A DNA stretch of 28,129 nt from Polaromonas sp. (GCA_044350025.1 JBILIK010000109.1:1-28129), one strand, 5' to 3'. Shown: positions 8,130 through 24,189, counted from the first letter of the stretch. The notes: a model not told the origin generated them from the sequence alone. Translations and numbers: made by a program.

Positions 8130-8138
8130 TTTGGACGG

Positions 8139-8183
8139 TGGTGGGCCCACCAGGACTTGAACCTGGGACCAAAGGATTATGAG
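8139..8183 (-). pseudogene. 3' half (C32 to A76) of the host tRNA(CAU) gene; attL junction
   Basis: The minus strand reads CTCATAATCCTTTGGTCCCAGGTTCAAGTCCTGGTGGGCCCACCA. That covers the anticodon loop, T arm CCAGG-TTCAAGT-CCTGG, the acceptor 3' strand and an encoded CCA. It complements the 5' half at 24149-24189. Confidence 0.85.
8175..8183. repeat. att core copy GATTATGAG (left junction)
   Basis: Identical 9-mers occur at 24149-24157 (right junction) and 24127-24135 (inner copy). The left and inner copies share the extension GATTATGAGAA. Confidence 0.7.
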
Positions 8184-8239
8184 AAGTTTCAATAAAAAAA
8201 TACCATTATAAATCATAGACTTACAACATTATTTCTTTG

Positions 8240-8259
8240 GTGTGTAGCAAAGTGTGTAG
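8240..8259 (+). repeat. Pair of GTGTGTAG motifs (candidate integrase arm-type sites, attL side)
   Basis: GTGTGTAG occurs at 8240-8247 and 8252-8259. The same 8-mer in the same orientation occurs at 23658, 24064 and (as GTGTGTAA) 24053. Confidence 0.45.
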
Positions 8260-8470
8260 TGAACTAAATCGTTTTTAGTTAAAAAATAACTTCAAATTTT
8301 TCTAGTTCAATGAACTTTCACACTACAAAAAATCTCCACTCAATCGCTTGGCGGGAATGTGTCAAACATACATAAATTAATCTTAAACGACCACACCATT
8401 TGTCACTGTCATCTTCATCAAAGCCAAACTTGTCGTCAAGTCGTTGTTGTGGTTTTGTCATTGTTTATTA

Positions 8471-8776
8471 TTAATTAGACAACATTTTGCCAAAATCTGG
8501 CACTTGATGCCTTCTATCAAAAACGGCTGGTGGCTGAATTTGAATTGGCTGCTGCATCTGGTGTTGATTTTGTTGCTGTTGTCTTTGCATCGCTTCAATA
8601 TTTTGCTGATTTCTTGACCGCTCCAAGCATCGGTAATAGTTTTCCACCATCAATGACCGTGTTTCAGCACCGGCATTTGCATAATTGGAAGTCTGATTTG
8701 GTGGAGCACCGCAATTTTGAGCATTCCCCTCAGTAGTAAAAAAAATTAGTGCCGATGCAGCAATTATGAATTTCAT
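8471..8776 (-). CDS. Small secreted Gln-rich protein (unknown function)
   Basis: 101 aa with a signal-peptide-like N-terminus MKFIIAASALIFFTTEGNA and a QRQQQQNQHQMQQPIQIQ tract. Its ATG overlaps the upstream stop (ATGA). Confidence 0.5.
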   Translation of the reverse strand: MKFIIAASALIFFTTEGNAQNCGAPPNQTSNYANAGAETRSLMVENYYRCLERSRNQQNIEAMQRQQQQNQHQMQQPIQIQPPAVFDRRHQVPDFGKMLSN

Positions 8777-9099
8777 ATACCGTACTTTCTTGAGAAAAAT
8801 TCAAACTCTCTAACCTCGCCACTTTTTTCATTCATATCATTTTGCTCACTGAAAAATTTTTCACCCATATTTAAAATGTGTGCCATAAAGATTGGCTCAT
8901 CATCATTAAATCCGTAGTTTTTATAATCAGCCCCCTTTTCTTCAAAGACCTCAATCAGTTTAAATCTTTCTTCAATTGTAAAAATTTGTCTCGTTAATTC
9001 ATTGTCTTTAAATCTATCTGGCAGCAGCAATACTTTTGTTCCAGGCTGCTCCTGCAGCCAATATTTAGGTTGATTTTTTTTAAAGAGTGATCCAAACAT
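8773..9099 (-). CDS. Hypothetical protein (108 aa)
   Basis: Clean ATG ORF, translationally coupled (ATGA) to the downstream secreted protein. No family recognised. Confidence 0.5.
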   Translation of the reverse strand: MFGSLFKKNQPKYWLQEQPGTKVLLLPDRFKDNELTRQIFTIEERFKLIEVFEEKGADYKNYGFNDDEPIFMAHILNMGEKFFSEQNDMNEKSGEVREFEFFSRKYGI

Positions 9100-9296
9100 A
9101 CTTTTCTCTTTCTAAAAGTCTTAGGCATCCGTCTTACAAAAGTTTAGATTTATGACAGTCTATCAGCCCCCATTGTCGCTGTGAATTTGCTGTAGTGCCG
9201 CTAAATCGTTGAGGCTCTGTTGCCCATCTGCTTGCTCAACATGTGTATGTCAGGGCTGTGGCCTACGCGTCGTGCAATTTTCTTACGTGCAAAAGT

Positions 9297-9548
9297 CTAA
9301 GTGGCCATCAGCGCATCTTCGATCGAACCTTGGAAACCCTCGGCGTCGCCATAGTGCACAACAAGGCGGCTACCAACGAATCGCGAGTCATTGAAATGCC
9401 ATGTGTACGTGAACTCTTCGCCTTCGTAAAATCCTTGGGCATCTTTCACAAGATGCGCACCACTTTTAACATCCATCCACTCTGTTGAAGTAAGGCTCAC
9501 AGTCTGAGTTTCGTAACCAATTTGAACACTTAAACTAATATCAGCCAC
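9297..9548 (-). CDS. Hypothetical protein (83 aa, GTG start)
   Basis: ORF with an AAGGA-like motif upstream of the GTG. Local GC (~50% by eye) is higher than its neighbours. No family recognised. Confidence 0.4.
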   Translation of the reverse strand: MADISLSVQIGYETQTVSLTSTEWMDVKSGAHLVKDAQGFYEGEEFTYTWHFNDSRFVGSRLVVHYGDAEGFQGSIEDALMAT

Positions 9549-9640
9549 AAGGAAGATCCTTCAACATTGGTTAAATTAGAAAAGGCCAGTGAAAGAATTC
9601 GCCATCGTTGAGTCAATACTTCAGAAGCATACCAAGGCTG

Positions 9641-10447
9641 TCAATAAGCACCCGTGTTCAAATCGCCTTGATAACACTCTGGGAAAAATATATTGATCAT
9701 TTTCATTGAGTCATCTTCTTCTTTTTCAGACACAATTATTTGCTCCAGCAATTCAATTATTTCTTCTTTGCTGTATTCGTCATCATCAAGTATTTCACCA
9801 TCCAAACCCTTCAACTGATAGACACCATGTTGATTGGGACCAGAATCTAAAGCATGTTCTAGTTTGTCTTGATCAGGCGTACTGTCGTAGTTGTACATGG
9901 CCAAGCCAAGTTTGTGGAGTGCATGAGCCAGATCACTTACAAAATCATATACATCGTGCTGAGTGAATCTATCCATATAGTCGATATCTTCAGCAGGGTT
10001 TGAGCCGCCAAGCAATCCAAATGCATTTACTGTTTTTCCAGTTACAGCATCGAAAGAGAAAATCCTGTTCTTTCTGCCTAGACCGAAACATAAAACTTGT
10101 TTTGTGAAGAGATTAACTATTATGAAATCTGGATTGAGATTTCCAGAGTTGAGATAACTTGCAAAAGGTTCATAAAGTTCGATTAATACATTTTTCAATT
10201 CAGGCCTGAGAACGCTAACATTAATGAAAAACAAATGGCCTACTGGTTTTTCTTCGCTATCAGGATTATTTTCATAGTGTTTCAGCAAATATTCAAAATC
10301 ATCTTGGTTGTATTCCGCATTGGGAATATCTTTGGCTCTGGGTTGACGGTCAAAAAAGGATTTTGAATACACATCAACCAAATCACCTTGTTGCTGAAGT
10401 TTCGCAAGCAAGGCAATGGCTGTTTTTGTACCACCCGTGATTTTCAT
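9641..10447 (-). CDS. Hypothetical protein (268 aa) with an acidic C-terminal region, immediately downstream of the Type ISP gene
   Basis: ATG preceded by GAAGGGA. Same strand and similar low GC as the ISP gene. No motifs recognised. Confidence 0.55.
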   Translation of the reverse strand: MKITGGTKTAIALLAKLQQQGDLVDVYSKSFFDRQPRAKDIPNAEYNQDDFEYLLKHYENNPDSEEKPVGHLFFINVSVLRPELKNVLIELYEPFASYLNSGNLNPDFIIVNLFTKQVLCFGLGRKNRIFSFDAVTGKTVNAFGLLGGSNPAEDIDYMDRFTQHDVYDFVSDLAHALHKLGLAMYNYDSTPDQDKLEHALDSGPNQHGVYQLKGLDGEILDDDEYSKEEIIELLEQIIVSEKEEDDSMKMINIFFPECYQGDLNTGAY

Positions 10448-10582
10448 AACAGTTCCCTTCTGTTCTTAAAAATTTCTTACGAATTCACAAACGATGCACT
10501 ACTGGAATCGTTCACAACATCTGCAATCGTGCCATCTTTAATCCGCTGTACTCTTTGTTCAATCATTTTTTTAGATCGGTTA

Positions 10583-13500
10583 TCACAAATCCAATTTTGG
10601 AAGCGAGTTAACGATCTTCATAGTTTCAAGTGAAACGGTAATCACACGTTGAAAGAGTTCCAGAGGATACGCTGGGTTATTCATCGTTTCAATCGCATAG
10701 TCATTTGCGTCATTGACGATGCCACTATCCTTGTCGACTTTCAAGCATTGACGTTCCATGACCCACTCAAGCGCGGGTTTACCGTTCACTACGTATTCAT
10801 AGGCTTCAAGCGGAATGTTCTTGATCGTGATGCGTTCGTTATAGATGACCGTTGTTTTATCTTCACGACCACGGGTTCCTGCAAAGCGCATTTTCTCTAC
10901 CCTATAAAGAAAGGTAGGGTCTACATTATTAAGTAAATCAGTTTGACTCTCTATGCTCAAGTTTCTATAGGGCTCCGCTCTCTCATAACCAACATGTAGG
11001 GTGCCGAGGGATTTTCCTGCATCTGCGATTTGACTGAAGATGCCAAAACCCTTAACTAAAGGTATCTTAGGCAAGCCCTTTTGCAAATTATTTTGAAACC
11101 GAGTCTTGAATTCTAAGGAGTGCAGAACACCATAAATATAATAAAAAATATCTTCTTTCTTTAGGTCGGAATTTTTATAAAAATTCCTAAACTCAGAAAG
11201 ACTCCAATCACTAATTGAGTCAAGACGTTTATATGAGGAATCATCCTTCTTCAGAGAAAAAAGATCTTCGTCCCTTTCCTCTCTCTCATAAAGAAAAAGA
11301 GGAAAAACTTGACCATTGAACTGAAGTTGCACATCTGGTAGTACATCTGCAAGAACTGCAGAAAAGTTCTTTGAACCAACTCCTGAAACCGCTATGCAGA
11401 GATTAGAAAAACCATTCTGTGGGAAGATTTTGGGTAATTGATAGACCCGATTATTGAAGTCTCGATCCGCATATGCCCAGCGCTTGGTGAAAGGTCTATA
11501 TAGGGTAAGTTGTATTGATTCAGGGCGGAAAGTGATGGTTTCACCCCTTCTAACACCCTCTCTCTGAGCAGTATCCCAACTAATAAGTTTCGGATCTGTG
11601 TTGATGAAGTTTTCGATTGCTATCGATGGCTGACGATGACTATCTTTTGAAAATCGTTCAACCTCGGTGTTATAAAAATTGATTGTCCGGCTTACATTTT
11701 TTTTAAGTTTTTCAATCGAATAGTTGTAATTCCAAGAATCTCGGTTGGTTTTAAGACCGCTTGAATAGTTATTAAAAACTACTTTGCTGCCCTTACCCTT
11801 TTTGTCGCCCAAGGTAATGAAAGAGTCAAATATTACTTCTCCTTGGTTGATCCAGTCGTTTGTGTTATCTGGCGACAGGCAAGTCCACTTTCCCTCTTTT
11901 GAGATCCCTTTAATTGATTGATAGTGCGAAATTATCTTGAGTTTCTCCTCGCGATCAAAGTAGTCACCAATATCACAGTAGAAAATCTCCCCAGACCTTG
12001 GCGAAGTACCCCGCTTCCTAACCAGAATTGTTATTGCTATCGGTGATCTGCTACCAGATCCAAAAATTTTGCCTCCCTCTCGCCGAGACAACTCTCCAGC
12101 AGTTCTCTGATTTCCGCGAAGATTGAAAACGTAAATCTTGTCAAATTCCTCGACAAGGCACTTACGCATTCCGTCGGTTGCGTTTCCGTCAATCCATCCC
12201 GCACCCGTTACAAAGCCGATTACACCTTCATCACCGATGCGATCGGATGCCATTCGAAAGGCACGGATGTAACTGTCGTAGAGGGAGTTTTTTAACGTTG
12301 CTGAACTAGATGCCGCGTAGGTGCTTTCGATACGCCGATCTAAATTTGAGTACTTCACATTTGCCGCATTGTCATTAGCACTTGTTTGTCCAGCGGAATA
12401 TGGTGGGTTGCCAATGATCACATTGATCTTACGTTTTCTCTGATTCTTTCTGCGCTGAGAGTTATCCGGCAAAAGATTCGCGATCATGTCGTGATCTTCT
12501 TCGTAAAGTTGAAAAGTGTCAGTTAGAACAATCCCGTTGAAAGGACGATATTGATGATCGTCAGTCAAGTCTTGGTAGACTGATTCAGCATTTATCGAAG
12601 CGATGTAGTAAGCGAGAAGCACTATCTCGTTCGCATGAATCTCGCTTTCGAACTTACGTTTCAGACTTTGCTTATCAATCAATCCTGATTGCAAAAGTCG
12701 TGAAATAAATGTGCCCGTGCCAGCAAAAGGATCAAGAACATGCACATTCTTCTCAGTAATTCTTGTTCCAAACTCTTCATGCAAAACGTCTTCAACTGAG
12801 TGAATGATGAAGTCCACCACTTCGACTGGCGTATAGACGATACCCAGTCGCTCAGTCATTGACTTAAATGCATAACTGAAGAATCGCTCATATAACTCTA
12901 GTATGAGCGTCTGTCGACCAGTAGAGGTTTCAATGTCTGCCGATCTGCGCTTGACAGAATCGTAGAACTTTTGAAGCGAATCACTTTCCTTCTCAAGTCG
13001 TTGCGCTGATAACGCAGTCAGAATTGACTGCATAGACTTTGAAACAGGATTTTCTTCTGTAAATTTATGATCTTTGAAGAGTGATTCAAAGACAGGTTTA
13101 GTCACCAGATGCTGTGCGAGCATCTCGACTGCTTGCTCCTCTGTGATAGAGGGATTCAAATCATCACGAATCTCTGCAACAAATTCCTCAAAAAGTTTTC
13201 GCTCTTTCGTTCCAGAGTTGAAGACTATGGCTTTGATTCGTATGATGTGAGCCTGAGCGATCTTCGCAATGTCCTTAGCCCAGTTCTCCCAGTAATCCCG
13301 AGTACCGCATCGCTCGACAATCTTTGCCTTGATTGCTTTTGATAAATCAGACAAGACGAATGCAAGTTGCTCTCCAGAGGTAGATTCTGGCTCCTCAATT
13401 GGTTCCTTTTCTCCTTTACCTTCATTCTCTAGACCCTCATCGCCACCTTCTTTGCGTTTTGGTTTTATATCATCAACTACAGCGGTAGTTGCTTCAAGTT

Positions 13501-15484
13501 CCGCTCTCGCTCCAACCCCGACAATCTCAATACGATCTGAAACGTCTTCACCTAGCCCCATTTTGTTAATGGTGCTATCGAATCGCTCATCGTGCGATCG
13601 AAGCGCATTCAAGATCTGCCATACGACACGGTACTTATCGTTGTCATTCAATGCTTTTTCGGGTGATACGCCAGGAGCGACCGTAATTGGAATAATCACA
13701 TAGCCGAGATCTTTACCCTCCGCTTTACGCATTACCCTCCCAACCGACTGCACCACGTCAATTTGACTTTTACGGGGATGCATAAAAATGACTGCATCTA
13801 ACGCTGGAACGTCAACGCCTTCAGACAAACACCTGACATTAGTAAGAACACGACATGAGTTATCTTCAATATCGTCTTTGAGCCAATTCAATCGTTCGTT
13901 TCGTAGATCAGCATCAAAACCACCATCTACATGCTTTAGATCCACGCGAAAATTATCGCTTTTTTCCTCTGCAGATTCCTTTGAAAGATATTCATCAACA
14001 ACTTGTGAAAACTCTTGCTCAAGCAACTTTGAAAGTTTTATGTTTTGACAAAACGCTAACGCCCTTCGCATGGGCTTCAAAGATGAAAAATCTAGCGCAT
14101 CTGACTCTGTAAATCCTTCTTTTTCAAGTGCTTTATAGCAACCGATAATTTTTGTTGCATCGTCAAGTTTTAGTTCAGCACCTTCCGCTAATCGATTCTG
14201 AACTTTTTCGCTAACGATACCCTCATCAACTGCCAGCACAACAACTTTGTAGTCAGTTAAAAGATTGTTTTCAACAGCCCATCCGAAACCTTTGTAGAAG
14301 AATAATGGACCATAAGTACTTTCATCGTCCATAGAGGCAAGAGTGACATTTTCGTCATCCGCCTTTGTCTTTGCCTTTTCACCATAGATTCGTGGTGTTG
14401 CCGTCATATAAAGACGCTTTACACCATTGACGTTATCGTTACTATGTATCTTGACGAAACTTGACTCATCGTCTCCAACAAGCGTTGCACCTGTCGTTCG
14501 GTGCGCTTCATCACAAACAATAAGTTCAAAGTTACCTAAGCCGTGCTTCTTTTGCGCCTCTGAAATTACATCTATTGAGTGATATGTGGAGAAAACAACT
14601 GTCATTCGATCAGAAGATGCTTTTGCAACAGCATCAGCAAGATCTTTCGCATTGGTTGTTGCTGGAAACGCAAGATCGTTAGTGCTTATGATTACTTCAT
14701 CGTCCTTCTTTCTGCTACCAACAGTAGCATCTGAGCAAGCAGAAAAAGCATTAAAGTCATGTGTCGCATCATTCTTCCACTCTCTGATCGTTTGCGACAT
14801 GAGTGACAGTGACGGAACCATATACAGAACTGTTTTTCCCGCACCTGCAATAGATTCAGAAATGATCAAACTGGTATATGTTTTACCTGTACCGCAAGCC
14901 ATGATGATCTTGCCGCGGTCATGTTCTGCGAATCCCTCTCTAGTCTTCTCTAGAGCCTCAGATTGATGAGGGCGTGGTCCATGCTTTGCTCGAAAACGGA
15001 GTTCATCTTTTTTGACAAGAGTGAGCCAGTCGATTAGACAGTTCTCTAATTCTGAAGTTTGAATTCGAAGATATTCTTTGTCGAGTTTATCAAGCACTTG
15101 TTGTGCGTTTGGAGCAATGCCTAAACTTGATGTGTCGATCAATAGCAAACGACTAAAGTCTTTGTTTGACGAAGCAGAGACAAAAGAATCAAGGTCTTGC
15201 TTTGTGATCTGATTTTCGGCGCCATAGCACTTGCATTGAATAGCGCAAAAGGTGTCTTGACCACGAATCTTGGCAACTAGATCGATTCCAATGTCTTTAC
15301 CGCTATAACCCTCATGCCCTGTTACCCAATCTGTGTAGTGCCAAACTCGCTCATATTGTTGCGTTTGAGTAGGATCGTTCTCAAGAAAGACCTTGACCAT
15401 TTTTTCAAATGCAGTTCCTAACTCAGTCGTGTTTGTTGAGCGGGTCCTTATTACTTCAAGGGCTTGTCTGAAAATAGTTGCCAT
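10583..15484 (-). CDS. Type ISP restriction-modification enzyme (single polypeptide: Mrr-like nuclease + SF2 helicase-like ATPase + gamma-class N6-adenine methyltransferase + C-terminal target-recognition region), LlaGI/LlaBIII-like
   Basis: 1633 aa. The PD-(D/E)xK-like motif is GIDLVA...AIQCKCY (about residues 66-86). The ATPase motifs are Walker A ACGTGKTYT (about 196-204), DEAH VCDEAHR (about 323-329), TATP, and motif VI QSVGRVMR. The methylase motifs are SAM motif VLDPFAGTGTF (about 916-926) and IIGNPPYSAG (about 1023-1032). A further ~600 aa C-terminal region follows. Domain order and size match the described Type ISP architecture. Confidence 0.85.
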   Translation of the reverse strand: MATIFRQALEVIRTRSTNTTELGTAFEKMVKVFLENDPTQTQQYERVWHYTDWVTGHEGYSGKDIGIDLVAKIRGQDTFCAIQCKCYGAENQITKQDLDSFVSASSNKDFSRLLLIDTSSLGIAPNAQQVLDKLDKEYLRIQTSELENCLIDWLTLVKKDELRFRAKHGPRPHQSEALEKTREGFAEHDRGKIIMACGTGKTYTSLIISESIAGAGKTVLYMVPSLSLMSQTIREWKNDATHDFNAFSACSDATVGSRKKDDEVIISTNDLAFPATTNAKDLADAVAKASSDRMTVVFSTYHSIDVISEAQKKHGLGNFELIVCDEAHRTTGATLVGDDESSFVKIHSNDNVNGVKRLYMTATPRIYGEKAKTKADDENVTLASMDDESTYGPLFFYKGFGWAVENNLLTDYKVVVLAVDEGIVSEKVQNRLAEGAELKLDDATKIIGCYKALEKEGFTESDALDFSSLKPMRRALAFCQNIKLSKLLEQEFSQVVDEYLSKESAEEKSDNFRVDLKHVDGGFDADLRNERLNWLKDDIEDNSCRVLTNVRCLSEGVDVPALDAVIFMHPRKSQIDVVQSVGRVMRKAEGKDLGYVIIPITVAPGVSPEKALNDNDKYRVVWQILNALRSHDERFDSTINKMGLGEDVSDRIEIVGVGARAELEATTAVVDDIKPKRKEGGDEGLENEGKGEKEPIEEPESTSGEQLAFVLSDLSKAIKAKIVERCGTRDYWENWAKDIAKIAQAHIIRIKAIVFNSGTKERKLFEEFVAEIRDDLNPSITEEQAVEMLAQHLVTKPVFESLFKDHKFTEENPVSKSMQSILTALSAQRLEKESDSLQKFYDSVKRRSADIETSTGRQTLILELYERFFSYAFKSMTERLGIVYTPVEVVDFIIHSVEDVLHEEFGTRITEKNVHVLDPFAGTGTFISRLLQSGLIDKQSLKRKFESEIHANEIVLLAYYIASINAESVYQDLTDDHQYRPFNGIVLTDTFQLYEEDHDMIANLLPDNSQRRKNQRKRKINVIIGNPPYSAGQTSANDNAANVKYSNLDRRIESTYAASSSATLKNSLYDSYIRAFRMASDRIGDEGVIGFVTGAGWIDGNATDGMRKCLVEEFDKIYVFNLRGNQRTAGELSRREGGKIFGSGSRSPIAITILVRKRGTSPRSGEIFYCDIGDYFDREEKLKIISHYQSIKGISKEGKWTCLSPDNTNDWINQGEVIFDSFITLGDKKGKGSKVVFNNYSSGLKTNRDSWNYNYSIEKLKKNVSRTINFYNTEVERFSKDSHRQPSIAIENFINTDPKLISWDTAQREGVRRGETITFRPESIQLTLYRPFTKRWAYADRDFNNRVYQLPKIFPQNGFSNLCIAVSGVGSKNFSAVLADVLPDVQLQFNGQVFPLFLYEREERDEDLFSLKKDDSSYKRLDSISDWSLSEFRNFYKNSDLKKEDIFYYIYGVLHSLEFKTRFQNNLQKGLPKIPLVKGFGIFSQIADAGKSLGTLHVGYERAEPYRNLSIESQTDLLNNVDPTFLYRVEKMRFAGTRGREDKTTVIYNERITIKNIPLEAYEYVVNGKPALEWVMERQCLKVDKDSGIVNDANDYAIETMNNPAYPLELFQRVITVSLETMKIVNSLPKLDL

Positions 15485-15516
15485 GATTTTTTATATTATT
15501 TTTTGATTAATTAAAA

Positions 15517-16907: not shown

Positions 16908-16998
16908 TCTTACCAAGTAATTGATGTGAATGCTCGGATGGTACACGAAAACAGCCAAAAACTTGATACTTCATCTACTGCAAATTCGCAGTATTTTT

Positions 16999-17421
16999 AT
17001 GGAGATGAATATGAACCACGTTAAGCAAGCACTATCAATTAACAAAGAAAAAAAGGCACATGCACTGCGACTTTATAAACAGGCCGTTAGTGAAGTTGTG
17101 CGCAAAGATTACAAACCAATGGACGATGATGCGCATGTTGATCTAAGTGCTGTATTTGGAATGAAATATGTTGAAGAACTTTTACAAAATGGAAAATCTT
17201 TTATCAATGCAAGCGTTTATGCCGCTTCGAATGTGGAATTTAATTATGCCAATTGCTTGTATTCACAAAAAGAAAAGTTTATCCAACTAGCGAAGGAACT
17301 TGTTTCCAAAAATGAAAGAGTTGACGATCAAAAACTCGAAAACATCGCAAGTCAAATGAATTTTATTTTGACATTTACTACAGCGAAACCTGCCGAAAGG
17401 CCATTTGTGCTGTTCAAATAA
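16999..17421 (+). CDS. Hypothetical protein (~137-140 aa)
   Basis: In-frame ATGs occur at 16999, 17005 and 17011. GGAG at 17001-17004 favours 17011 (MNHVKQ...). No family recognised. Confidence 0.5.
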   Translation: MEMNMNHVKQALSINKEKKAHALRLYKQAVSEVVRKDYKPMDDDAHVDLSAVFGMKYVEELLQNGKSFINASVYAASNVEFNYANCLYSQKEKFIQLAKELVSKNERVDDQKLENIASQMNFILTFTTAKPAERPFVLFK

Positions 17422-17438
17422 TATTTAGAAATAATCAA

Positions 17439-17492
17439 TTCCACGGCCTGAAAGTATTGCTCTTTACAAATACTTAATTAATGGCCGTGGAA
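17439..17492 (+). other. Nested intergenic stem-loop
   Basis: The outer 10 bp perfect inverted repeat is TTCCACGGCC / GGCCGTGGAA (17439-17448 / 17483-17492). It encloses an inner AAGTATT / AATACTT pair. No U-tract follows. Confidence 0.4.
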
Positions 17493-17511
17493 CATCATAC
17501 AAGGAAAAATC

Positions 17512-17886
17512 ATGGAAATTATTACCACACCCGTCAAAGTCAAGACTGGAAAAGGCAGATCTAGGAAATATCAATTTCTAGATGCTGAGAAAATGAACAA
17601 TCAATACCCATCAACGTTTATGCTTCATTCACTTCAGATTAGATCTAATATACCCAACCGAATGTGGGTCAAATGTGGGGTTCAATGGAGTGGAGGCATT
17701 AATGAAAATGCATGGTTTGAGGTAATTGAAGTACAAAAAGATGATCTCGGAAAAATCACATATACAGCCGAGTTAGACAAATACAACTTGAGTGGGCTCG
17801 GCGAAGGTGTTGTTGCTTGTGGGATTGAACCGCGACATATATTAGATTTGGATTTCGAAAAATTCAAAAAGATGTTTGCACCTTAA
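17512..17886 (+). CDS. Hypothetical protein (124 aa)
   Basis: ATG preceded by AAGGAAAAA. Faint resemblance to DUF2314-like proteins (MWVKC...AWFEVIEV) that I cannot verify. Confidence 0.5.
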   Translation: MEIITTPVKVKTGKGRSRKYQFLDAEKMNNQYPSTFMLHSLQIRSNIPNRMWVKCGVQWSGGINENAWFEVIEVQKDDLGKITYTAELDKYNLSGLGEGVVACGIEPRHILDLDFEKFKKMFAP

Positions 17887-18455
17887 ACCAGTTCCACAGC
17901 CTTGCGCAACATGTTGTCATTGGCATCGATGTAAACGGCTGTGGTGCTGACATTCCTATGTCCCATCAATCGCATCAACACACGCAGACCCACGCCTTGC
18001 GATGCAATTGATGTGGCATAGGTTCTACGGCCACTGTGGCTGCTGGCACCTTCAATGCCCGCTGCGCGGTACAGGCTCAAAAAGTGTTGTGTGAGTGTGT
18101 TGGCTGTGAAACCTTTGCGTGGATTTTTCTGAGTGGGAAACAAGGCGCGATCCTTGTCGTCTGTGCGAATCAGCGTGACGTACTGGGTCAGTTCTTCCTT
18201 GAGTCTAGTGCTGACAAACACGGTGCGTGGATGCTTGCCCTTGGTCTGTTCAGCAGTCAAACGGATTTCATTTTTGATGTTGCCAGTGGCATCCACAACA
18301 TGACCAACAGTGAGTGAGGCAATCTCCCCTACCCGCATGCCGCTCAAATGACTTGTGAGAATCAACGCCCTATCGCGTGCTGCGTATTTTTTAGCACTGA
18401 CATGCTCAAGTACCCGTTTAATTTCTTGTTCGTTTAGTGTTTTGGCTTGTGACAT
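17883..18455 (-). CDS. Small tyrosine recombinase consisting of the catalytic domain only (190 aa)
   Basis: Candidate catalytic residues appear in order: R (ARDRALIL), HSGRRTYAT (H-x-x-R), GHRNVSTT (H/W) and AVYID (Tyr). There is no N-terminal core-binding or arm-binding domain. It overlaps the 3' end of the convergent gene by 4 bp. Confidence 0.7.
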   Translation of the reverse strand: MSQAKTLNEQEIKRVLEHVSAKKYAARDRALILTSHLSGMRVGEIASLTVGHVVDATGNIKNEIRLTAEQTKGKHPRTVFVSTRLKEELTQYVTLIRTDDKDRALFPTQKNPRKGFTANTLTQHFLSLYRAAGIEGASSHSGRRTYATSIASQGVGLRVLMRLMGHRNVSTTAVYIDANDNMLRKAVELV

Positions 18456-18759
18456 TTGTTGCTCCTTGGCGTAATCAAATAATTAACTTGAAATAAGCAT
18501 AATTTCTGAGATTAGGTCTGAGCAACCTCTATGTAAACGACCCGCCAAGGTGACGGGTTTCTATGTTGTTTTGTTCAAAATCAAGGGGTTAGCGCAGCAA
18601 CTACATATTTCAGTAATTTTCTTTGGTTTCGTATTTATGAGTTTTCTGTGGCTTATAGAACACGAATTGACGGACAAGCCCTGCAAGCGTTTTTAAGCGT
18701 AGGCCGCTACCCAAGTACCCATTTGTATTTTTTGATTTGCTGTAGGGCTTTTAAGTGCG

Positions 18760-19230
18760 TTAATTTTTAATGACTGTGTGATACAGCGTTTCTAAGTCAA
18801 GTTTGTAGGTCAGGTCACTCACATTGAGAATTTCAACAGATCCTCTAATAAACCACTCAACGACACCTTCTTCACTTCTGATTGAAATCTGACCTTCATC
18901 ATCATCAACAACAACTTCTTCCTCACCATAGTCGTGTTGAGGTAATTTGAAGATCCATATGAGTTGTTGTAATTCATACTCCATAACTAAATCTATGTTT
19001 GTTGCAAGATAGTCTGGTGAAAGAGCAAACTTGATCTCTTTTTCACTGTCACGGATGTTCTTTATGTCAAGTACCTGTACTGGTGTCAATATTGGACGTG
19101 TGTACGATTTATGTTCTATAGATTCTTGTACAGCGACTGGATCTTCACTTCCATTGCTCATTTGATAAACAGCAAGAACACTTATTTTTACGAGTAGATT
19201 TTTTAACTGCTCTTCATCCATTAAGTTCAC
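18760..19230 (-). CDS. Hypothetical acidic protein (156 aa, GTG start)
   Basis: GAGGAAG lies 6 nt upstream of the GTG at 19230. It has many D/E residues (YGEEEVVVDDDEGQ). No family recognised. Confidence 0.5.
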   Translation of the reverse strand: MNLMDEEQLKNLLVKISVLAVYQMSNGSEDPVAVQESIEHKSYTRPILTPVQVLDIKNIRDSEKEIKFALSPDYLATNIDLVMEYELQQLIWIFKLPQHDYGEEEVVVDDDEGQISIRSEEGVVEWFIRGSVEILNVSDLTYKLDLETLYHTVIKN

Positions 19231-19340
19231 TTGTCTTCCTCTTTAGCAATATTTTCAAAATCTTCTATTAAAGCATTCACATGTTTGGCTCTAAACCAAG
19301 TTCACTGCACTCCAATTCTTTTATTTCACATGTCCGACTT

Positions 19341-19841
19341 TCACTTGTGCTCTAACAACGTCTCAATGATGTCCCATCTATTTTTGTATTCATCAATTCG
19401 CCAACCTGAGTAAGAAGCAGATGGAGGGATATTGATGGTTCTGACTGTGCCATCTTGCCTGACGCTTCCATCTTTACTCAATTCACTAAGCCACATCTTA
19501 TGCGCCTTTGAAACATTCGTTGAGACTTCTAAAGAAGGAATAACGTAGTACTCAAAATCTGCTGTTGAGTTTGCTGACGGAATACCAGCAAGAACCCAAA
19601 TGAAGTTCTCACCAAAATTCTTTTCAGCCTTTACACCAACCGTAACTGTTTTATTGCCAGGCACATATGTCTTGACTTGTATGTGAACGAACTTTGTTCC
19701 CTCTGCGTTGCTACAAAGAATGTCCGTATTAGGCGTATTGCCCATAGTGACTACAGCAACCAAATCACGTCTACAAAGTTCACCAGCCACAAAAAACTGT
19801 GCTGAACTTCCTCTTGCGTTCTTATTTGTGGTTGCCATCAT
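19341..19841 (-). CDS. PD-(D/E)xK nuclease-like protein (166 aa)
   Basis: The pattern GSSAQFFVAGELCRRDLVAV...TDIL...VHIQVKT resembles the restriction-endonuclease-like fold (D...(E/Q)xK) of small stand-alone nuclease-like proteins. Confidence 0.45.
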   Translation of the reverse strand: MMATTNKNARGSSAQFFVAGELCRRDLVAVVTMGNTPNTDILCSNAEGTKFVHIQVKTYVPGNKTVTVGVKAEKNFGENFIWVLAGIPSANSTADFEYYVIPSLEVSTNVSKAHKMWLSELSKDGSVRQDGTVRTINIPPSASYSGWRIDEYKNRWDIIETLLEHK

Positions 19842-19992
19842 TGACTCAATTTTTGTTTAGTTGACTCATCTTACTTGTCAGTCTTGTTTTATTCAATGTT
19901 TGAGTTTTTATCTATGTATGAATCGTTCAAGCATGACAAAGAACTACGAACCCTTGTGCGATTCGCAGTGTTGTAAGAACCTTAAAGTGACT

Positions 19993-20583
19993 TCAGTCTG
20001 CTTTAAGGGCGGCGTGAGGAATCCAGCAGTTGCTTACATCCCAAATGCTGTTTGTGTCCCACGCCTTACGTGTGTTTTGTTGTGCCTCTTTTAATGAGTA
20101 GCCTGCCCAATGTGAGGCCTCGCCTACTTTGTAGTAGTCGTAGGCTTTCACATCCGTTGATTGATGTGCCATATCGTGCCAAGCGTGCCTAAATAATGTT
20201 TCTATGTCATCCGTACTGAGAACGGAGGGCAAGTTGCCTAATGAGATGTTTACGTGAATTGTTTGTGATCTGTCAGTGGTCTCTTTTGCCCCTTCGATCG
20301 TTACGAAGGTAAGTGGCTTAAAGAGATACGGGTTCTGGGCGGGCCTATTTGATCGTGCTGGATAAAGGGATCTGAAGAAGCAGTTCAATGCGTGCCTTGT
20401 GTCCTTGCTTGTTTGCTCCATCTTTGATTTGATGTACTGATCTGCCCTCACGTGCTTAAAGCGCCCTACATCTGTACTCGCTACATATGGGCGATGCAAG
20501 GTGTGGGCAACGACTACGTGGCTTACGTGTTGCTCGTGCTGATTAAACATAGATTCAATGTCTTTGGCGTTGTACTGTCTCAT
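19993..20583 (-). CDS. Hypothetical protein (~196 aa; 203 aa if the TTG at 20604 is used)
   Basis: Long ORF with no recognised family and no obvious Shine-Dalgarno for either start. Confidence 0.45.
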   Translation of the reverse strand: MRQYNAKDIESMFNQHEQHVSHVVVAHTLHRPYVASTDVGRFKHVRADQYIKSKMEQTSKDTRHALNCFFRSLYPARSNRPAQNPYLFKPLTFVTIEGAKETTDRSQTIHVNISLGNLPSVLSTDDIETLFRHAWHDMAHQSTDVKAYDYYKVGEASHWAGYSLKEAQQNTRKAWDTNSIWDVSNCWIPHAALKAD

Positions 20584-20654
20584 GAATTTATTTAGTAAAA
20601 CCAAAGAAAAGGAGACAGAAATATTGAGGTTGCTCTTCTTGCAGATCAGAAATT

Positions 20655-20677
20655 AAAGTTAAGTTCTCTTTAACTTT
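20655..20677. promoter_or_regulatory. Inverted repeat AAAGTTAA-N7-TTAACTTT in a divergent intergenic region (candidate operator)
   Basis: Perfect 8 bp arms at 20655-20662 and 20670-20677, 14 nt upstream of the ATG at 20692. Confidence 0.3.
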
Positions 20678-20691
20678 TTAGGACGATCGCG

Positions 20692-21135
20692 ATGAGCATT
20701 CTTTCAACTCTCAAATTTGTAGCAAGCAAGAAAAAGCAGGGAATTGCACCCTTAATTCAACGCAGAAACAAGTTGAGCAACAAGATCTTTGAACAAATTC
20801 AACTGGCCCAAGCACAAAAAGATGGACGCACGTACGCACCCACACGCTTGAAGACTTACGTCAACAAGCAAACGGGCGAACGCAAGACCATTGAATCAGT
20901 CAAAAAAGTGCGTGAGTGGTGGCACATCAATGACAGCGGAAAAATCAACTTGATTTGCAAGTACGGCAGCAAGCAGATCCAATTTGACGCAAAAGGCAAG
21001 AATGCTATTGAAGTGTCAAATGGCGATGAATTGCTGACTGCACTTGAGTCGCTGAAGTTGGCTGTTGAGCAAGGTGAACTTGATCAGCAGATTGAAGCAA
21101 CCAGCAGCGCCTTGCGAGCAGGATTTTCTAAGTAA
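20692..21135 (+). CDS. Island-associated hypothetical protein (147 aa; resembles a conserved family seen next to integrases, possibly DUF6641-like)
   Basis: The layout is MSILSTLKF...RRNKL...EQIQLA...WW...G.I.L..KYG.K...F...GKNAIEV...L...L..AVEQGELD. The family name is recalled from memory and unverified. Confidence 0.5.
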   Translation: MSILSTLKFVASKKKQGIAPLIQRRNKLSNKIFEQIQLAQAQKDGRTYAPTRLKTYVNKQTGERKTIESVKKVREWWHINDSGKINLICKYGSKQIQFDAKGKNAIEVSNGDELLTALESLKLAVEQGELDQQIEATSSALRAGFSK

Positions 21136-21143
21136 GGGCACAA

Positions 21144-21173
21144 GTTGTTCATATAAATAAATGTATGAACAAC
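21144..21173 (+). promoter_or_regulatory. 10 bp perfect hairpin GTTGTTCATA-N10-TATGAACAAC sequestering the start codon of the next ORF
   Basis: The arms are at 21144-21153 and 21164-21173. The right arm contains the ATG at 21165. It lies 8 nt after the preceding stop. Confidence 0.35.
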
Positions 21174-21509
21174 TATTTGGCCACAGTGCGTGCCATGGGA
21201 CGAGTGTTGCAGACAGCAGTCTTTGCACAAAGCCCATTACATGCACGGTATATTTTAGAATTTCAATTTGGGATCGGCAATGTACACATCAATCCCAAAC
21301 CCGTGTCGCTTTTATTAGCAGATGCTGTAGTTGGTGAAGGAGCAGCGACACAAGCGAATTTAAACCCGCATCAACAACGCATCAAAACACTGCAAAGACA
21401 AAAAGACTTGATCTCAAAAAGCATTGAGTCTGAGCGAGCCAAAGACAAGTTGTCAAAGGCCCAGCAGCAGATGCGAATGGCAACTCAAATCAAAACTGGT
21501 TTTTCTTGA
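21165..21509 (+). CDS. Hypothetical protein (114 aa)
   Basis: ORF with a basic, coiled-coil-like C-terminus (QRQKDLISKSIESERAKDKLSKAQQQMR). No family recognised. Confidence 0.4.
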   Translation: MNNYLATVRAMGRVLQTAVFAQSPLHARYILEFQFGIGNVHINPKPVSLLLADAVVGEGAATQANLNPHQQRIKTLQRQKDLISKSIESERAKDKLSKAQQQMRMATQIKTGFS

Positions 21510-21741
21510 GATTTCATGAAATCGGATTGGGTAGATTTTTATAAGTTGCGCACACAATTTTTTGTCTTAACTACTTTTCTATCACCCCACCATTTTTTTG
21601 ACCATACCCCTTTTCAATTCAAAATGCTCAAACCGGTCGATAGGTAGTTGCTGACTGGTTTAAGCGCTGGTATAGGTGTTGATTGCTAGGAACTGGCCTA
21701 ATGAATGACAGGTGTAGTTGAAATGTTTTTCAGCCAACTGC

Positions 21742-22107
21742 CTAGTATTCGCTTGGCAACATGACCACCCAAAACTCACCCGTCCAACAACCGTAAAGTG
21801 TGATGGCAGATAGTGGGAAGTCTGTGTACTCGATTTTCTGCTTTGCCAAGACCCTGCCGTTTCCATCCTCAATTGAAACAGATGCTGATCGATTTGTGCT
21901 TGTGAGTTTCAGACAAGTGAACCAATCTTTGTTGCCATCAACGCCACTTAAGTGTGATGCGTACACATCAAACAACCAAAAGCACTCTGCGTTTTCAGCA
22001 AGGTAGCGTGAGCCCTCTGTGAGCAATACAGTCCGTGTCAATTTCGCTAACTGATCACAACCAGTGAACTGTTTGAGCGTTGCGAGTAATTCATTTTCTT
22101 CAACCAT
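21742..22107 (-). CDS. DUF6876-like protein (121 aa), a family common on plasmids and integrative elements
   Basis: The layout is QFTGCDQL...LTEGSRYLAENAECFWLFDV...IEDGNG...IEYTDFPL...LPSEY. An AAGGA motif lies upstream of the ATG. The family name is from memory. Confidence 0.55.
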   Translation of the reverse strand: MVEENELLATLKQFTGCDQLAKLTRTVLLTEGSRYLAENAECFWLFDVYASHLSGVDGNKDWFTCLKLTSTNRSASVSIEDGNGRVLAKQKIEYTDFPLSAITLYGCWTGEFWVVMLPSEY

Positions 22108-22201
22108 TTCTGTGTTCCTTTAAGTGTGAACACAGTATTAGTTCTTCGCATCAAATGGACAACCTGTGTCCTGCCAGATTGGCGGTGTATCAATAGCCTA
22201 C

Positions 22202-23614
22202 TCACTTTGCCTTGACAGAAACCTTGGCATTTGTTTTCTTAGGGGCTATTTTTCTTGCCAGCAATTCTGCTTTTTTCTTTGCTTGTGCTGAGTGATAGAT
22301 TTCTTCAACAGTTGAAGTTGAGGCAATTCTTCGTCGTGTTTCTTGTCCACGCAATTGCTCAGTTGCTTCAATTACTTTGAGATGACTATAGTGACGCTCA
22401 ATCATCAGCACACTTGTACCCATCTGTTTAGCAAGCGTGTGAATTGGCACTTTATCGTGCGTCAGTGCCAGCGTTGCGTATGTGTGACGAAAACTGTAGA
22501 ACACACGGTTCTGCTCCGTTTTTGGATCGTACAGCAAGTTGTGCTCATCCAAGTACCTCTCAAACATGTGTTGAAACGCTGCACTGACGTCTTGCTTCTT
22601 TTCTTTTGTACGCAACACAAAGTCATCATTGTTTGGAGTCACAACATTTTTGAACGGATCAATGATGTTATTTCTAACGCCATAAACACGACGAGCAATA
22701 CGCTCAAGCACTTTCACCGTTGGCTGTCTTCCAACAATTTCACGTGTGCCCGTCTTACCCGTAACAATTAACTCAACACCTCTGTTTAAATCAGTCAGAA
22801 CAATTTCTTCTTCTGTGCCATCGTCTGAAACAGCCTTTTGCCCAGTGTAAATTTCTCTAGGATTCATCGTGAACTTGATCTGTTTCCATTTCAAGTTCAT
22901 CAACTCTTTGCCAGGTCGTGCTCCTGTATCAATGAGCATCTCAGAATAGTCACGCATTATCTGGCGCATCTCTTTGCTGTGTGCGTTACGTGCCCGTTCA
23001 ATCCATGCTTCGAAGTTGTTGATCACAGCCTGTATTTCCTTCAGCGTAAAGGCTGGATGGCGTGTGCTCTTCTTACCTTTCGCTTCAAGTTTTGGACGAT
23101 TGAGATCAGTTAAAAAATTACGCAGCACAGCCTCGTCAAACACCAGATTCAGTGCTGCGTTGTGGCTAAGCATGGTGCTGTTGCTTGGCGTTCTTTCCAT
23201 CATCTGTATGCGTTCAGCATCCAAGTGATCCAGTGCTGTGCTGTCAATGTTGGTGATGAGCCTGTTGCCCAAAATTGGGATCAAGTACTCATTGATGATG
23301 CGCATGTAGTCTTTGTAGGAGACTTTGCCATCGCCGTTGGCAATCTTCTGTTCCATACGCTGTACGGCAAGTTTGGCAACGTCTCTGAACTTGCGTGTGA
23401 TGACTGGCAGGTTGTCGTGCTTGCGAATTTCCGCACGTATCTTTATCGCCTTCGCTACTTCTTTGGCATCTTTCAACTTGCGTTCTTTAGTTGAGGCACG
23501 TTGCCAAACACCATCAACTTTGTAGCGGCATTGCCAAATTGAACTTCGCTCTCGTCTGTAAACGACAAGTTCGTTTTCTGTGACTATGTGAGTCGTTTCA
23601 AGTTTGGCTGACAT
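22202..23614 (-). CDS. int: Tyrosine-type site-specific integrase of the island (470 aa)
   Basis: The C-terminal catalytic region reads TGARPGKELMNLKW...FYSFRHTYATLAL...TLAKQMGTSVLMIERHYSHL (R, H-x-x-R, H, Y). It lies at the island end next to the tRNA/att region. Confidence 0.85.
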   Translation of the reverse strand: MSAKLETTHIVTENELVVYRRERSSIWQCRYKVDGVWQRASTKERKLKDAKEVAKAIKIRAEIRKHDNLPVITRKFRDVAKLAVQRMEQKIANGDGKVSYKDYMRIINEYLIPILGNRLITNIDSTALDHLDAERIQMMERTPSNSTMLSHNAALNLVFDEAVLRNFLTDLNRPKLEAKGKKSTRHPAFTLKEIQAVINNFEAWIERARNAHSKEMRQIMRDYSEMLIDTGARPGKELMNLKWKQIKFTMNPREIYTGQKAVSDDGTEEEIVLTDLNRGVELIVTGKTGTREIVGRQPTVKVLERIARRVYGVRNNIIDPFKNVVTPNNDDFVLRTKEKKQDVSAAFQHMFERYLDEHNLLYDPKTEQNRVFYSFRHTYATLALTHDKVPIHTLAKQMGTSVLMIERHYSHLKVIEATEQLRGQETRRRIASTSTVEEIYHSAQAKKKAELLARKIAPKKTNAKVSVKAK

Positions 23615-23657
23615 AAACGCACTTTAATTTCAAAACGACAAAAGATCAACCAAGTAA

Positions 23658-23665
23658 GTGTGTAG
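23658..23665 (+). repeat. GTGTGTAG motif between the integrase start and the island tRNA (candidate arm-type site)
   Basis: Same 8-mer and orientation as at 8240, 8252 and 24064. Confidence 0.4.
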
Positions 23666-23674
23666 TGTGCAGAC

Positions 23675-23706
23675 AAAAAAAGAGAACTGCTTTTACACAG
23701 TTCTCT
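23675..23706 (-). terminator. Rho-independent terminator after the island tRNA
   Basis: The minus strand reads AGAGAACTG-tgtaaaag-CAGTTCTCT followed by TTTTTTT, starting 9 nt after the tRNA CCA end. Confidence 0.6.
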
Positions 23707-23714
23707 TTTAGATT

Positions 23715-24003
23715 TGGTGGGACCAGCGAGACTCGAACTCGCAACCAAAGGATTCCGCTTTGTGTGACTTTCGCCACTCGCTGGACTTTGCCTTCACCAT
23801 ATTGATTGCTCAACTTAGGCGGGTGCCGTCAAGTCTCTACACGTTCCAAAGTGCTTTCGCACCAAGGCTTCGCTCGGCATTGCCGTATGTGTTTCCACAC
23901 TTAGGTTTCACCGAATTTGACACCATCCCTTACACAGTTTCCACGTGTAAGGCACATTTGAGAAATATGAGTCCTCTGCGCTAACCAATTGCGCCATAGT
24001 CCC
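23715..24003 (-). tRNA. Island-borne tRNA(CAU), most like tRNA-Ile2 (lysidine type; Met not excluded), interrupted by a group I intron after the anticodon
   Basis: The 5' exon is GGGACTATGGCGCAATTGGTTAGCGCAGAGGACTCAT (24003 to 23967). The 3' exon is AATCCTTTGGTTGCGAGTTCGAGTCTCGCTGGTCCCACCA (23754 to 23715). Joined, they fold as a canonical cloverleaf with anticodon loop CTCATAA. Confidence 0.85.
23755..23966 (-). ncRNA. Group I intron, subgroup IC3, Azoarcus pre-tRNA-Ile type (212 nt, no ORF)
   Basis: The minus strand is near-colinear with the Azoarcus ribozyme as I remember it. The matching segments are AUGUGCCUUACACGUGGAAACUGUGUAAGGGAUGGUGUCAAAUUCGGUGAAACCUAAGUGUGGAAACACAUACGGCAAUGCCGAGCG, then GUGUAGAGACUUGACGGCACCCGCCUAAG, then GGCGAAAGUC, ending in GCGG. 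P1 forms as CAU|AU with AUGUG, with a U.G wobble at the 5' splice site. The terminal G precedes AAUCC. Confidence 0.85.
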
Positions 24004-24012
24004 TTAATACTG

Positions 24013-24018
24013 ATTGTA
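24013..24018 (-). promoter_or_regulatory. Candidate -10 box TACAAT for the island tRNA
   Basis: The minus strand reads TACAAT-cagtattaa-GGGAC. The host tRNA has the same hexamer and spacing at 24199-24204. No convincing -35 box. Confidence 0.35.
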
Positions 24019-24052
24019 CGTGGTCGTTTTACTATAAAAACAGTCCTCAAAA

Positions 24053-24071
24053 GTGTGTAAGCGGTGTGTAG
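24053..24071 (+). repeat. Pair of GTGTGTA(A/G) motifs (candidate integrase arm-type sites, attR side)
   Basis: GTGTGTAA is at 24053-24060 and GTGTGTAG at 24064-24071. The paired spacing resembles the attL pair. Confidence 0.45.
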
Positions 24072-24126
24072 TGTTTAACGCACCCTCTTAAACTACGTAA
24101 CATGTTGATTTATATAGATAATTTAC

Positions 24127-24135
24127 GATTATGAG
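24127..24135. repeat. Extra inner copy of the att core GATTATGAG, 13 bp inside the right junction
   Basis: CGATTATGAGAACTTTT here compares with GGATTATGAGAAGTTT at attL. Confidence 0.5.
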
Positions 24136-24148
24136 AACTTTTTTAATA

Positions 24149-24189
24149 GATTATGAGTCCTCTGCTCTAACCAACTGAGCTATAGGCCC
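24149..24189 (-). pseudogene. 5' half (G1 to C40) of the host tRNA(CAU) gene; attR junction
   Basis: The minus strand reads GGGCCTATAGCTCAGTTGGTTAGAGCAGAGGACTCATAATC, then diverges into AT-rich island DNA with no T arm or acceptor strand. Confidence 0.85.

Follow-up and report, generated by a model that had tools for sequence, protein, structure and literature searches.

The usual explanation for why cells tolerate integration into tRNA genes is that the incoming element rebuilds the gene that it enters. The contig JBILIK010000109.1 (Polaromonas sp., GCA_044350025.1) raises the question of how the gene's function is kept when an element does not rebuild it. Here, the window means the whole stretch of 28,129 nt that was analysed, with coordinates counted from its first letter; features lie on the minus strand unless stated otherwise, and L-numbers denote the loci and contigs with which the window was compared. 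In the window, a resident tRNA(CAU) gene is interrupted at its anticodon loop by an island of 15,965 bp (8184-24148), and a first-pass annotation, made from the sequence alone, had concluded that the gene was physically split by about 16 kb and that the host would need a substitute if this were its only AUA-decoding tRNA-Ile gene. We found a complete tRNA(CAU) gene, interrupted by a group I intron, on the island itself. It is in our judgment highly probable that an integrative defence island has split tRNA-Ile2(CAU) and brought its own intron-bearing replacement gene, so that this island family would use whole-gene replacement instead of repair.

The resident gene was read in two pieces. Positions 24189-24149 of the minus strand (41 nt, GGGCCTATAGCTCAGTTGGTTAGAGCAGAGGACTCATAATC) represent its 5' half, G1 to C40, and positions 8183-8139 (45 nt, CTCATAATCCTTTGGTCCCAGGTTCAAGTCCTGGTGGGCCCACCA) its 3' half, C32 to A76, and the two overlap by the 9-bp core CTCATAATC. 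When joined through the core they gave a 77-mer that ARAGORN called as tRNA(cat) with a canonical cloverleaf; the overlapping halves described in the first-pass annotation were thus recovered both by exact reading and by the program call. Within the 28-kb window the core has three copies, at 24157-24149, 24135-24127 and 8183-8175; every copy is on the minus strand and belongs to the junctions. The first of these ends the orphan 5' half and forms the attachment site attL, and the last begins the displaced 3' half and forms attR. The GC content drops from about 0.55 outside to about 0.40 between the two junctions; the earlier estimate of a 16-kb insertion corresponds to a low-GC island of 15,965 bp lying between the halves. 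A terminator-like hairpin of the resident gene, read from the sequence and unscored, was located at 8100-8130. On the island side of attL, from 24148 downward, the post-core sequence (TATTAAAAAAG…) is not tRNA, as had been reported.

The uninterrupted target was found in public contigs. The cupin protein encoded on the host flank (ChrR-type, 7410-8063) is also encoded on 22 public contigs, and among those listed, six independent metagenome contigs with the identical cupin protein lack the island (L001, L002, L004, L005, L006 and L009). In all six, hrcA is followed by a 334-nt spacer and the cupin gene, and the spacer holds an intact tRNA(CAU) gene identical to the joined halves, which is the order that had been predicted for island-free relatives, with the two halves contiguous. 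The island was present in the cupin-region contigs L003, L007 and L011-L014. The island-free contigs prove attB, the empty chromosomal site, and the island is polymorphic in natural populations.

The island-borne gene escaped the standard searches. ARAGORN in its default mode, which makes no intron search, called no tRNA either in the window or in contigs that bear the island, and an Rfam scan of the window at the gathering threshold likewise found no tRNA. A permissive Rfam scan of the island gave an Intron_gpI match at 23979-23762 (minus strand, 45.7 bits, E=5e-9) that abuts a tRNA-like 5' half at 24003-23967, a repeat finder reported 23754-23715 as 78% identical to the host 3' half, and ARAGORN with the -i option called a tRNA-Met(cat) with i(38,212), that is, a 212-nt intron at position 38. 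Lying on the minus strand at 24003-23715, the complete tRNA(CAU) gene begins 145 bp in from the 24148-side junction and consists of exon 1 (23967-24003, positions 1-36, ending in CUCAU), the intron (23755-23966) and exon 2 (23715-23754, A37 to CCA). Ordinary tRNA finders and reading by eye miss it because the 212-nt intron interrupts its anticodon loop. Removal of 23966-23755 leaves GGGACTATGGCGCAATTGGTTAGCGCAGAGGACTCATAATCCTTTGGTTGCGAGTTCGAGTCTCGCTGGTCCCACCA, a perfect 77-nt cloverleaf that agrees with the host tRNA at 63 of 77 positions; where the acceptor, D and T stems of the two differ, the changes compensate for one another. A -10-like box, TACAAT, lies upstream (about 24017-24012), and an intrinsic-terminator-like hairpin with a 13-bp stem and a T run follows directly after the gene (23678-23709), as it does in L015, L093, L094 and L095. 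The view that the host needs a substitute was right in that the resident gene is not rebuilt at the junction, but a complete island-borne tRNA(CAU) gene is present at 24003-23715.

Other explanations of these matches were given up. The third 5' half was at one stage taken as a fossil attL of an earlier integration or as a captured host fragment; this was dropped on finding the intron and exon 2 contiguous with it. A hidden conventional tRNA in the island was also dropped, the gene having come to light only in the permissive Rfam scan and with ARAGORN -i. A split tRNA of the archaeal kind, with halves joined in trans via complementary leaders, was set aside, since a complete intron-containing gene explains the data.

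Both tRNAs carry a CAU anticodon on an elongator-type body. Initiator tRNAs have an unpaired 1-72 position and three G-C pairs in the anticodon stem; here, by contrast, positions 1 and 72 form a G-C pair, and the anticodon stem, GAGGA/UCCUU, does not have the three G-C pairs. In E. coli, the TilS identity elements are reportedly C4-G69/C5-G68 and G27-U43, an assignment attributed to Ikeuchi et al. in 2005. Measured against these E. coli determinants, the host copy has C4-G69 and C5-G68 and the island copy A4-U69 and C5-G68, while C5-G68 and G27-U43 are invariant across the 62 homologues described below. The intron class to which the island gene belongs has been named Ile2.5Ug (bioRxiv 10.1101/2020.01.27.920355). 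The resident and the island tRNA are most likely both tRNA-Ile2, and the resemblance to tRNA-Ile2 noted in the first-pass annotation is plausible, given that listing, the invariant pairs and the lack of initiator features.

The 212-nt intron was classified as a group I intron of subgroup IC3, of the Azoarcus/Ile2.5Ug type, from its Rfam match, its identity with the Azoarcus intron and its covariation. It is inserted after U36, the fifth anticodon-loop nucleotide of tRNA(CAU), ends in omega-G, and is 79.3% identical over 188 aligned columns to the Azoarcus pre-tRNA-Ile ribozyme (sequence printed in PMC8890501). Its guide GUG pairs with the exon CAU to form P1. A scan of GTDB with one genome per species, using the intron core GGGATGGTGTCAAATTCGNNGAAACC as the query, returned 76 loci, almost all from Betaproteobacteria (Methylophilaceae, Comamonadaceae, Oxalobacteraceae, Rhodocyclaceae and Polynucleobacter). 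Azoarcus genomes were absent from these 76 matches, perhaps owing to the choice of species representative or to masking, although the published Azoarcus ribozyme matches the query pattern. U-1, which forms a G-U wobble in P1, and omega-G were present in all 64 cleanly called homologues, every one of which splices in silico to a canonical tRNA(CAU), and the CAU/GUG pairing was present in 62 of 62. RNAalifold analysis of 62 distinct precursors yielded 80 pairs, 31 of them with compensatory two-sided changes; it recovered the acceptor, anticodon (closing across the intron) and T stems of the tRNA together with P2, P3, P4, P5, P6, P8, P9 and P9.0. The P7 pseudoknot pair covaries perfectly (A:T in 47 precursors, T:A in 15). 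Judged by this pattern of covariation, the intron represents a functional ribozyme family and not debris.

The likeness to the intron of the Azoarcus pre-tRNA-Ile(CAU), also of subgroup IC3, is close: the two share the tRNA, the site after U36, the P1 pairing (CAU:GUG), the 3' end …GUCACACAAA(G/C)CGG and 79% of their sequence. Their lengths are similar too: the window intron has 212 nt and the natural Azoarcus intron 205 nt (PMC8890501 prints 197 nt and states that 8 nt are missing). They differ in setting. The Azoarcus intron has been described in a chromosomal tRNA gene, as a model ribozyme, whereas the present one lies in the tRNA gene of a mobile island and the intron-less host copy is destroyed. 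Seven predicted viral contigs of IMG/VR (L099-L105) contain a tRNA(CAU) gene with the same intron core and different exons. Neither an orphan half upstream nor a homologue of the window integrase was found in these seven contigs, which may carry phage-borne intron-containing tRNA-Ile2 genes. Matches of about 100 nt, with 74-78% identity to part of the intron, were also obtained on large plasmids or chromids of Tritonibacter mobilis (NZ_CP015231.1 and NZ_CP110385.1) and Comamonas aquatica (CP079746.1); these short stretches suggest that related introns occur outside Betaproteobacteria and on plasmids.

The position of the island tRNA gene was then considered in relation to the attachment sites. 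A tyrosine integrase gene (int, 22202-23614, 470 amino acids; Pfam PF00589, 28.5 bits; PHROG integrase) adjoins the 24148-side junction, and the residues R233, R376 and Y409 are conserved in its family. The integrase has 2017 homologues at E<=1e-10. The left (P') arm, between the core and the island tRNA (24004-24148), is conserved in L015, L023, L033, L039, L077, L089 and L093 and contains the arm-type repeat CACTACACACCGCTTACACAC at about 24073-24050. The right (P) arm (8184-8262) is homologous to the pre-core sequence of L093 and L089, contains two CTACACAC repeats (8259-8252 and 8247-8240) and ends in ...TTATTGAAACTT before the core. In the window, CTACACAC occurs four times, against 0.46 expected, always on the minus strand and always in the att arms: twice in the right arm, once in the left arm, and once between the island tRNA and int, just upstream of the latter (23658-23665). 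Because of this last copy, the intron-tRNA gene is placed inside the P' arm of attP, the attachment site of the island. The first-pass annotation had allowed that an island-encoded 3' tRNA segment might have been overlooked at the 24148-side junction, which it called attR; none adjoins the core there, and instead an entire intron-bearing gene lies inside the int-proximal arm.

The attL and attR of the window were aligned with six attL sites and two further junctions (L093 and L089), and all were in register on CTCATAATC. The junctions in L093 and L089 read right arm, core, left arm, which is the attP configuration. L093 was obtained by searching metagenomes for the attP junction predicted from the two ends of the window island (…TTATTGAAACTTCTCATAATCTATTAAAAAAG…); it is a cargo-less relative whose visible genes are int, a DUF6876 gene, a small recombinase gene and an open reading frame (ORF) of 268 amino acids. 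L077 and L089 lie on one contig (NZ_NESN01000001.1, Limnohabitans parvus II-B4), one after a host 5' half and the other after an attP-type junction, an arrangement that points to islands in tandem at a single tRNA. A second copy of TTCTCATAATC (24127-24137) lies 22 bp, or two helical turns, inside the island from the core; its role as an essential tandem core was rejected, as it is degenerate in L015, L033, L039, L077, L089 and L093 and kept in L023. A blastn search with the attP-tRNA-int module gave no phage match and only short plasmid matches (about 100 nt). On this result, and on the IMG/VR contigs lacking the orphan half and an integrase homologue, a phage or plasmid origin of the island was dropped.

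To place this design within its integrase family, relatives were sorted by integrase identity. At 71% identity or above, an orphan half together with an intron-tRNA was found in 8 of 8 assessable cases (the window, L023, L015, L039, L077, L094, L095 and L107); L106, with 75% integrase identity, was left out of the count because its flank is too short to reach the tRNA. One of the eight is Limnohabitans sp. 63ED37-2 (L015, complete chromosome CP011774.1), in which a 92%-identical integrase is found after hrcA. The order there is an orphan 5' half ending in CTCATAATC, the left arm, the intron-tRNA (Rfam, 48.2 bits) and int, and the island has the same backbone with other cargo. At 64-70% identity (L108, L096, L098 and L109) the arrangement is classical, a single intact tRNA(CAU) immediately preceding the arm repeats and int. 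A further locus with 64% integrase identity, L097 (JGI, Joint Genome Institute, 3300071517, Ga0620987_00250, about 1300-3000), has an orphan 5' half followed by a complete tRNA(CAU) that lacks an intron and whose anticodon stem is GTCGA/TCGAT, as against GAGGA/TCCTT in attB. Its host flank on the hrcA side is almost identical to that of the window, and an insertion sequence (HTH_Tnp_1 and rve) lies between hrcA and the orphan half. On this distribution, whole-gene replacement is best read as a derived state within a classical integrase family that targets the anticodon loop, and it occurs with and without the intron.

The design recurs beyond this integrase family. Enough upstream sequence for assessment was available at 72 of the 76 GTDB intron loci. 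An orphan tRNA(CAU) 5' half lies 125-340 nt upstream of the intron-bearing gene at 35 of the 72; eight have a core without a recognisable tRNA half (attP- or tandem-like, masked or degenerate), and the remaining 29 have neither core nor half and look like resident genes. When the window integrase was compared with the 76 loci by tblastn, 12 were matched. The post-core sequences fall into several unrelated types and the downstream genes differ, other recombinases included, one of them looking by eye like a P4-type integrase (no profile test). Several island families, and not one integrase family, therefore share the design.

Some of these loci bear on the fate of the host gene. In the complete chromosome of Methylophilaceae ME-M6 (L034, OZ271846.1), a 1.2-kb mini-element without an integrase has both junctions visible, in the order host 5' half, core, arm, intron-tRNA, arm, core, host 3' half. 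The element begins about 190 nt ahead of the intron-tRNA start and extends to about 1100 nt beyond it, and the host halves are mutated; it may be non-autonomous and mobilised in trans, or a deletion derivative. The orphan halves are degenerate in L036, L052 and L081 too. Such decay in these four loci shows, as far as comparison of the halves can tell, long-term replacement of the host gene by the island copy. At L052, a decayed second intron 3' end with exon 2 (omega-G changed to T, exon mutated) was seen about 3.9-4.0 kb downstream of the intact intron-tRNA. In a Methylotenera metagenome-assembled genome (L037), an intron-containing tRNA(CAU) is followed downstream by a series of displaced tRNA 3' halves, each starting …AAAATCCG; the pattern resembles that of repeated integration, directly 3' of the intron site, by classical islands of the kind that restores the 3' half.

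We propose the following mechanism. At the resident tRNA-Ile2(CAU) gene, which lies between hrcA and the cupin gene, the integrase would have recombined the anticodon loop with the attP core, (T)TCTCATAATC, and the resident gene was left as two dead halves 16 kb apart. The 3' part of the target is not carried beside the core; the int-proximal attP arm brings a complete tRNA gene of the island's own, with its -10-like box and terminator. After transcription the intron would splice itself out to give a normal 77-nt tRNA, and AUA decoding would be supplied by the island. Replacement of the whole gene may widen the host range, since the island would be freed from matching the host acceptor stem, whereas a classical island has to build a chimeric tRNA on the 5' half of the host; a chimera of host 5' and island 3' parts would pair at 4 of 7 acceptor positions in L094 and at 6 of 7 in the window.

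The intron may also confer a form of att immunity. It lies within the crossover core, between CTCAT and AATC, where it replaces the 3' half-site, and the island copy therefore lacks a contiguous attB core. That copy would then be no substrate for the island's own integrase or for competing ones, whereas an intron-less whole tRNA-Ile2 gene would constitute an attB about 190 bp from the attP core. The changed anticodon stem of L097 may be an alternative solution to this self-attB problem. With the resident gene split and the core broken in the island copy, no intact attB would remain, and the cell would rely on the island unless it has another copy of tRNA-Ile2. The islands could further act as vehicles that spread an intron lacking an endonuclease, and they could replace the host gene permanently. 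A joint reading would combine these steps: the Azoarcus-type intron would be largely an island component that breaks the att site against own and rival integrases, attB would be eliminated, the cell would depend on the island for AUA, the islands would spread the intron, and decay of the orphan half, or recombination between the orphan half and exon 1, would leave a "resident" gene as in Azoarcus. We offer this joint reading tentatively, as a real possibility that falls a little short of an even chance.

Comparison with known systems helps to delimit what is unusual here. The island shares with classical tRNA islands of the anticodon-loop sublocation (Islander/TIGER-type; PMC4383910) a tyrosine integrase beside the junction, crossover in the 7-nt loop, a short direct repeat at its ends, attP arm repeats, low-GC cargo and presence/absence polymorphism. 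In the classical islands, however, attP carries a target part contiguous with the core, whereas here nothing beside the core restores the gene and a separate intron-bearing gene starts 145 bp away, inside the P' arm. SPbeta in spsM (PMC5499854) also splits its target while integrated, and precise excision would restore it; targets of that type are protein-coding and dispensable when the element is integrated, whereas the tRNA targeted here is presumably essential and its replacement travels with the element. In archaea, disrupted tRNA genes have been viewed as protection against integration (Randau and Soll, as cited in PMC4390854), and Sugahara et al. (2012; PMC3293823) considered that an element-borne intron could benefit the integrated element by blocking further invasion. 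The notion that an intron inside a tRNA attB prevents integration is the same. The archaeal cases involve protein-spliced introns, pNOB8/SSV-type integrases and an intron in the reconstituted host gene, whereas the present case is bacterial, with a group I ribozyme, a split host gene and a whole substitute. In the literature searched, the protective-intron idea has so far been proposed only for archaea, where it is speculative, and no paper was found in which the Ile2 class of group I introns is connected with integrative islands.

The intron could be a neutral passenger, a whole tRNA-Ile2 gene having been captured from a betaproteobacterium with a resident intron; the replacement would then be functional and the intron would have no att role. 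The 29 of 72 assessable intron loci that lack an orphan half and look resident fit this explanation, as does L097, where the whole gene is replaced without an intron. Moreover, the first base of the intron is A, so that six of the seven loop positions (CTCATA) are still contiguous in the island copy. However, the intron-tRNA is associated with several island families, judged by their differing post-core sequences, their downstream genes and the P4-like integrase seen by eye; it is kept in all eight relatives at or above 71% integrase identity; and the intron-less copy in L097 has a changed anticodon stem, as expected if an island copy must differ from attB. Neutral passage is in our view a real possibility, though less likely than not.

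The island might only inactivate the tRNA and bring nothing, the host living on another tRNA-Ile2 copy or on an AUA-decoding substitute elsewhere. The absence of a tRNA 3' segment at the junction and the blank results of standard ARAGORN and the Rfam gathering scan agree with this, yet a complete intron-containing tRNA(CAU) starts 145 bp inside the junction, its structure covaries in 62 homologues, and an island tRNA is found in every assessable close relative of the island; we consider mere inactivation very unlikely. The island tRNA and its intron could alternatively be a non-functional, decaying relic, such as the fossil of an earlier integration, and decayed intron and exon fragments do exist at some related loci (the far end of L052, with omega-G changed to T and mutated exons). 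In the window copy, by contrast, P1 (CAU:GUG) is intact, U-1, omega-G and all core helices are present along with a -10-like box and a terminator, and the spliced cloverleaf is perfect; where this copy departs from the host tRNA, the changes compensate for one another and do not look random, which leaves decay a most doubtful explanation. A misjoining of the island into the tRNA locus during metagenome assembly, which might be suspected from the breakage of the island across contigs with ends near the junctions in several samples (L008, L010, L003/L011), is scarcely credible, as the same attL junction was assembled independently in three JGI samples, homologous junctions exist in isolate genomes including the complete chromosomes CP011774.1 and OZ271846.1, and both junctions share the 9-bp core expected of site-specific recombination.

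Several points nevertheless weigh against replacement of tRNA-Ile2 by an intron-bearing island gene as we have described it. Splicing, expression and lysidine modification of the island tRNA are predictions from sequence. The count of tRNA-Ile2 genes covers the window, and a second copy may be present elsewhere in the host genome. The Intron_gpI score of 45.7 bits (48.2 bits in L015) is just below the gathering score of 50; Williams (2020; bioRxiv 10.1101/2020.01.27.920355) accepted hits of at least 18-20 bits located within split tRNA calls. The design does not depend on att immunity, as the intron-less replacement in L097 still holds CTCATAATC, though with another anticodon stem. Independence of the host acceptor stem is not always needed either, the island and host tRNAs being fully compatible in Limnohabitans hosts. 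Finally, the metagenome search yielded no circular form of the window's own island, and L093, which it did yield, is a related element whose junction could be that of a tandem.

The remainder of the island consists of a conserved backbone and cargo. The backbone includes a DUF6876 protein (21742-22107; same position in L015, L093, L094, L098 and L109), a DUF6641 protein identified by family match (20692-21135, plus strand) and a second tyrosine recombinase of 190 amino acids comprising the catalytic domain only (17883-18455; PF00589, 94.5 bits; found in L011, L015, L093 and L097), which could be a resolvase, an Xis-like partner or an invertase. It also includes the 268-amino-acid ORF (9641-10447), which has no family match and was called too in the island-bearing L003 and L007; an ORF in the corresponding place in the cargo-less L093 was equated with it from size and position, not from alignment. 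The cargo comprises a T5orf172/PDC-S57 candidate defence protein predicted from profile matches (15517-16143) and a Type ISP (IIG) restriction-modification enzyme of 1633 amino acids (10583-15484; PADLOC REase_MTase_IIG, 2107 bits). The domains of the latter are, in order, an Mrr nuclease, a superfamily 2 (SF2) helicase, a coupler, an N6-adenine methyltransferase and a C-terminal specificity domain.

On the host side, hrcA (24372-25388; 338 amino acids as called in public contigs) and the cupin gene were assigned by domain matches and from the public contigs. The flank beyond the cupin gene (L001 16300-20654; about 1-7400 in the window) encodes BchL/ChlL-like (Fer4_NifH), Oxidored_nitro, polyprenyl synthase and O-methyltransferase proteins. 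This suggests a photosynthesis gene cluster and fits an aerobic anoxygenic phototroph such as Limnohabitans. A Limnohabitans-like betaproteobacterium is indicated as the host by the bch-type flank genes and by the hrcA/NAD kinase/recN synteny shared with Limnohabitans genomes.

We know of no explanation for the biological context and spread of the Azoarcus-type ribozyme, which is among the most thoroughly studied of ribozymes and carries no homing endonuclease. The present finding combines a tRNA-targeting island with such an intron, in an unexpectedly broad distribution, and has a practical side: standard finders miss intron-tRNA genes, so that genomes with the island seem to have no tRNA-Ile2, and mapping programs that expect a rebuilt tRNA will misplace the boundary of the island. 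If our reading is true, the family would provide a bacterial test case for the long-standing idea that tRNA introns shield genes from integration, a mechanism by which group I introns of bacterial tRNA genes spread horizontally and become fixed in chromosomes, and a new way for mobile elements to become indispensable and to exclude competitors from a hot spot. It would thereby offer a testable hypothesis on why bacterial tRNA introns exist and how they spread.

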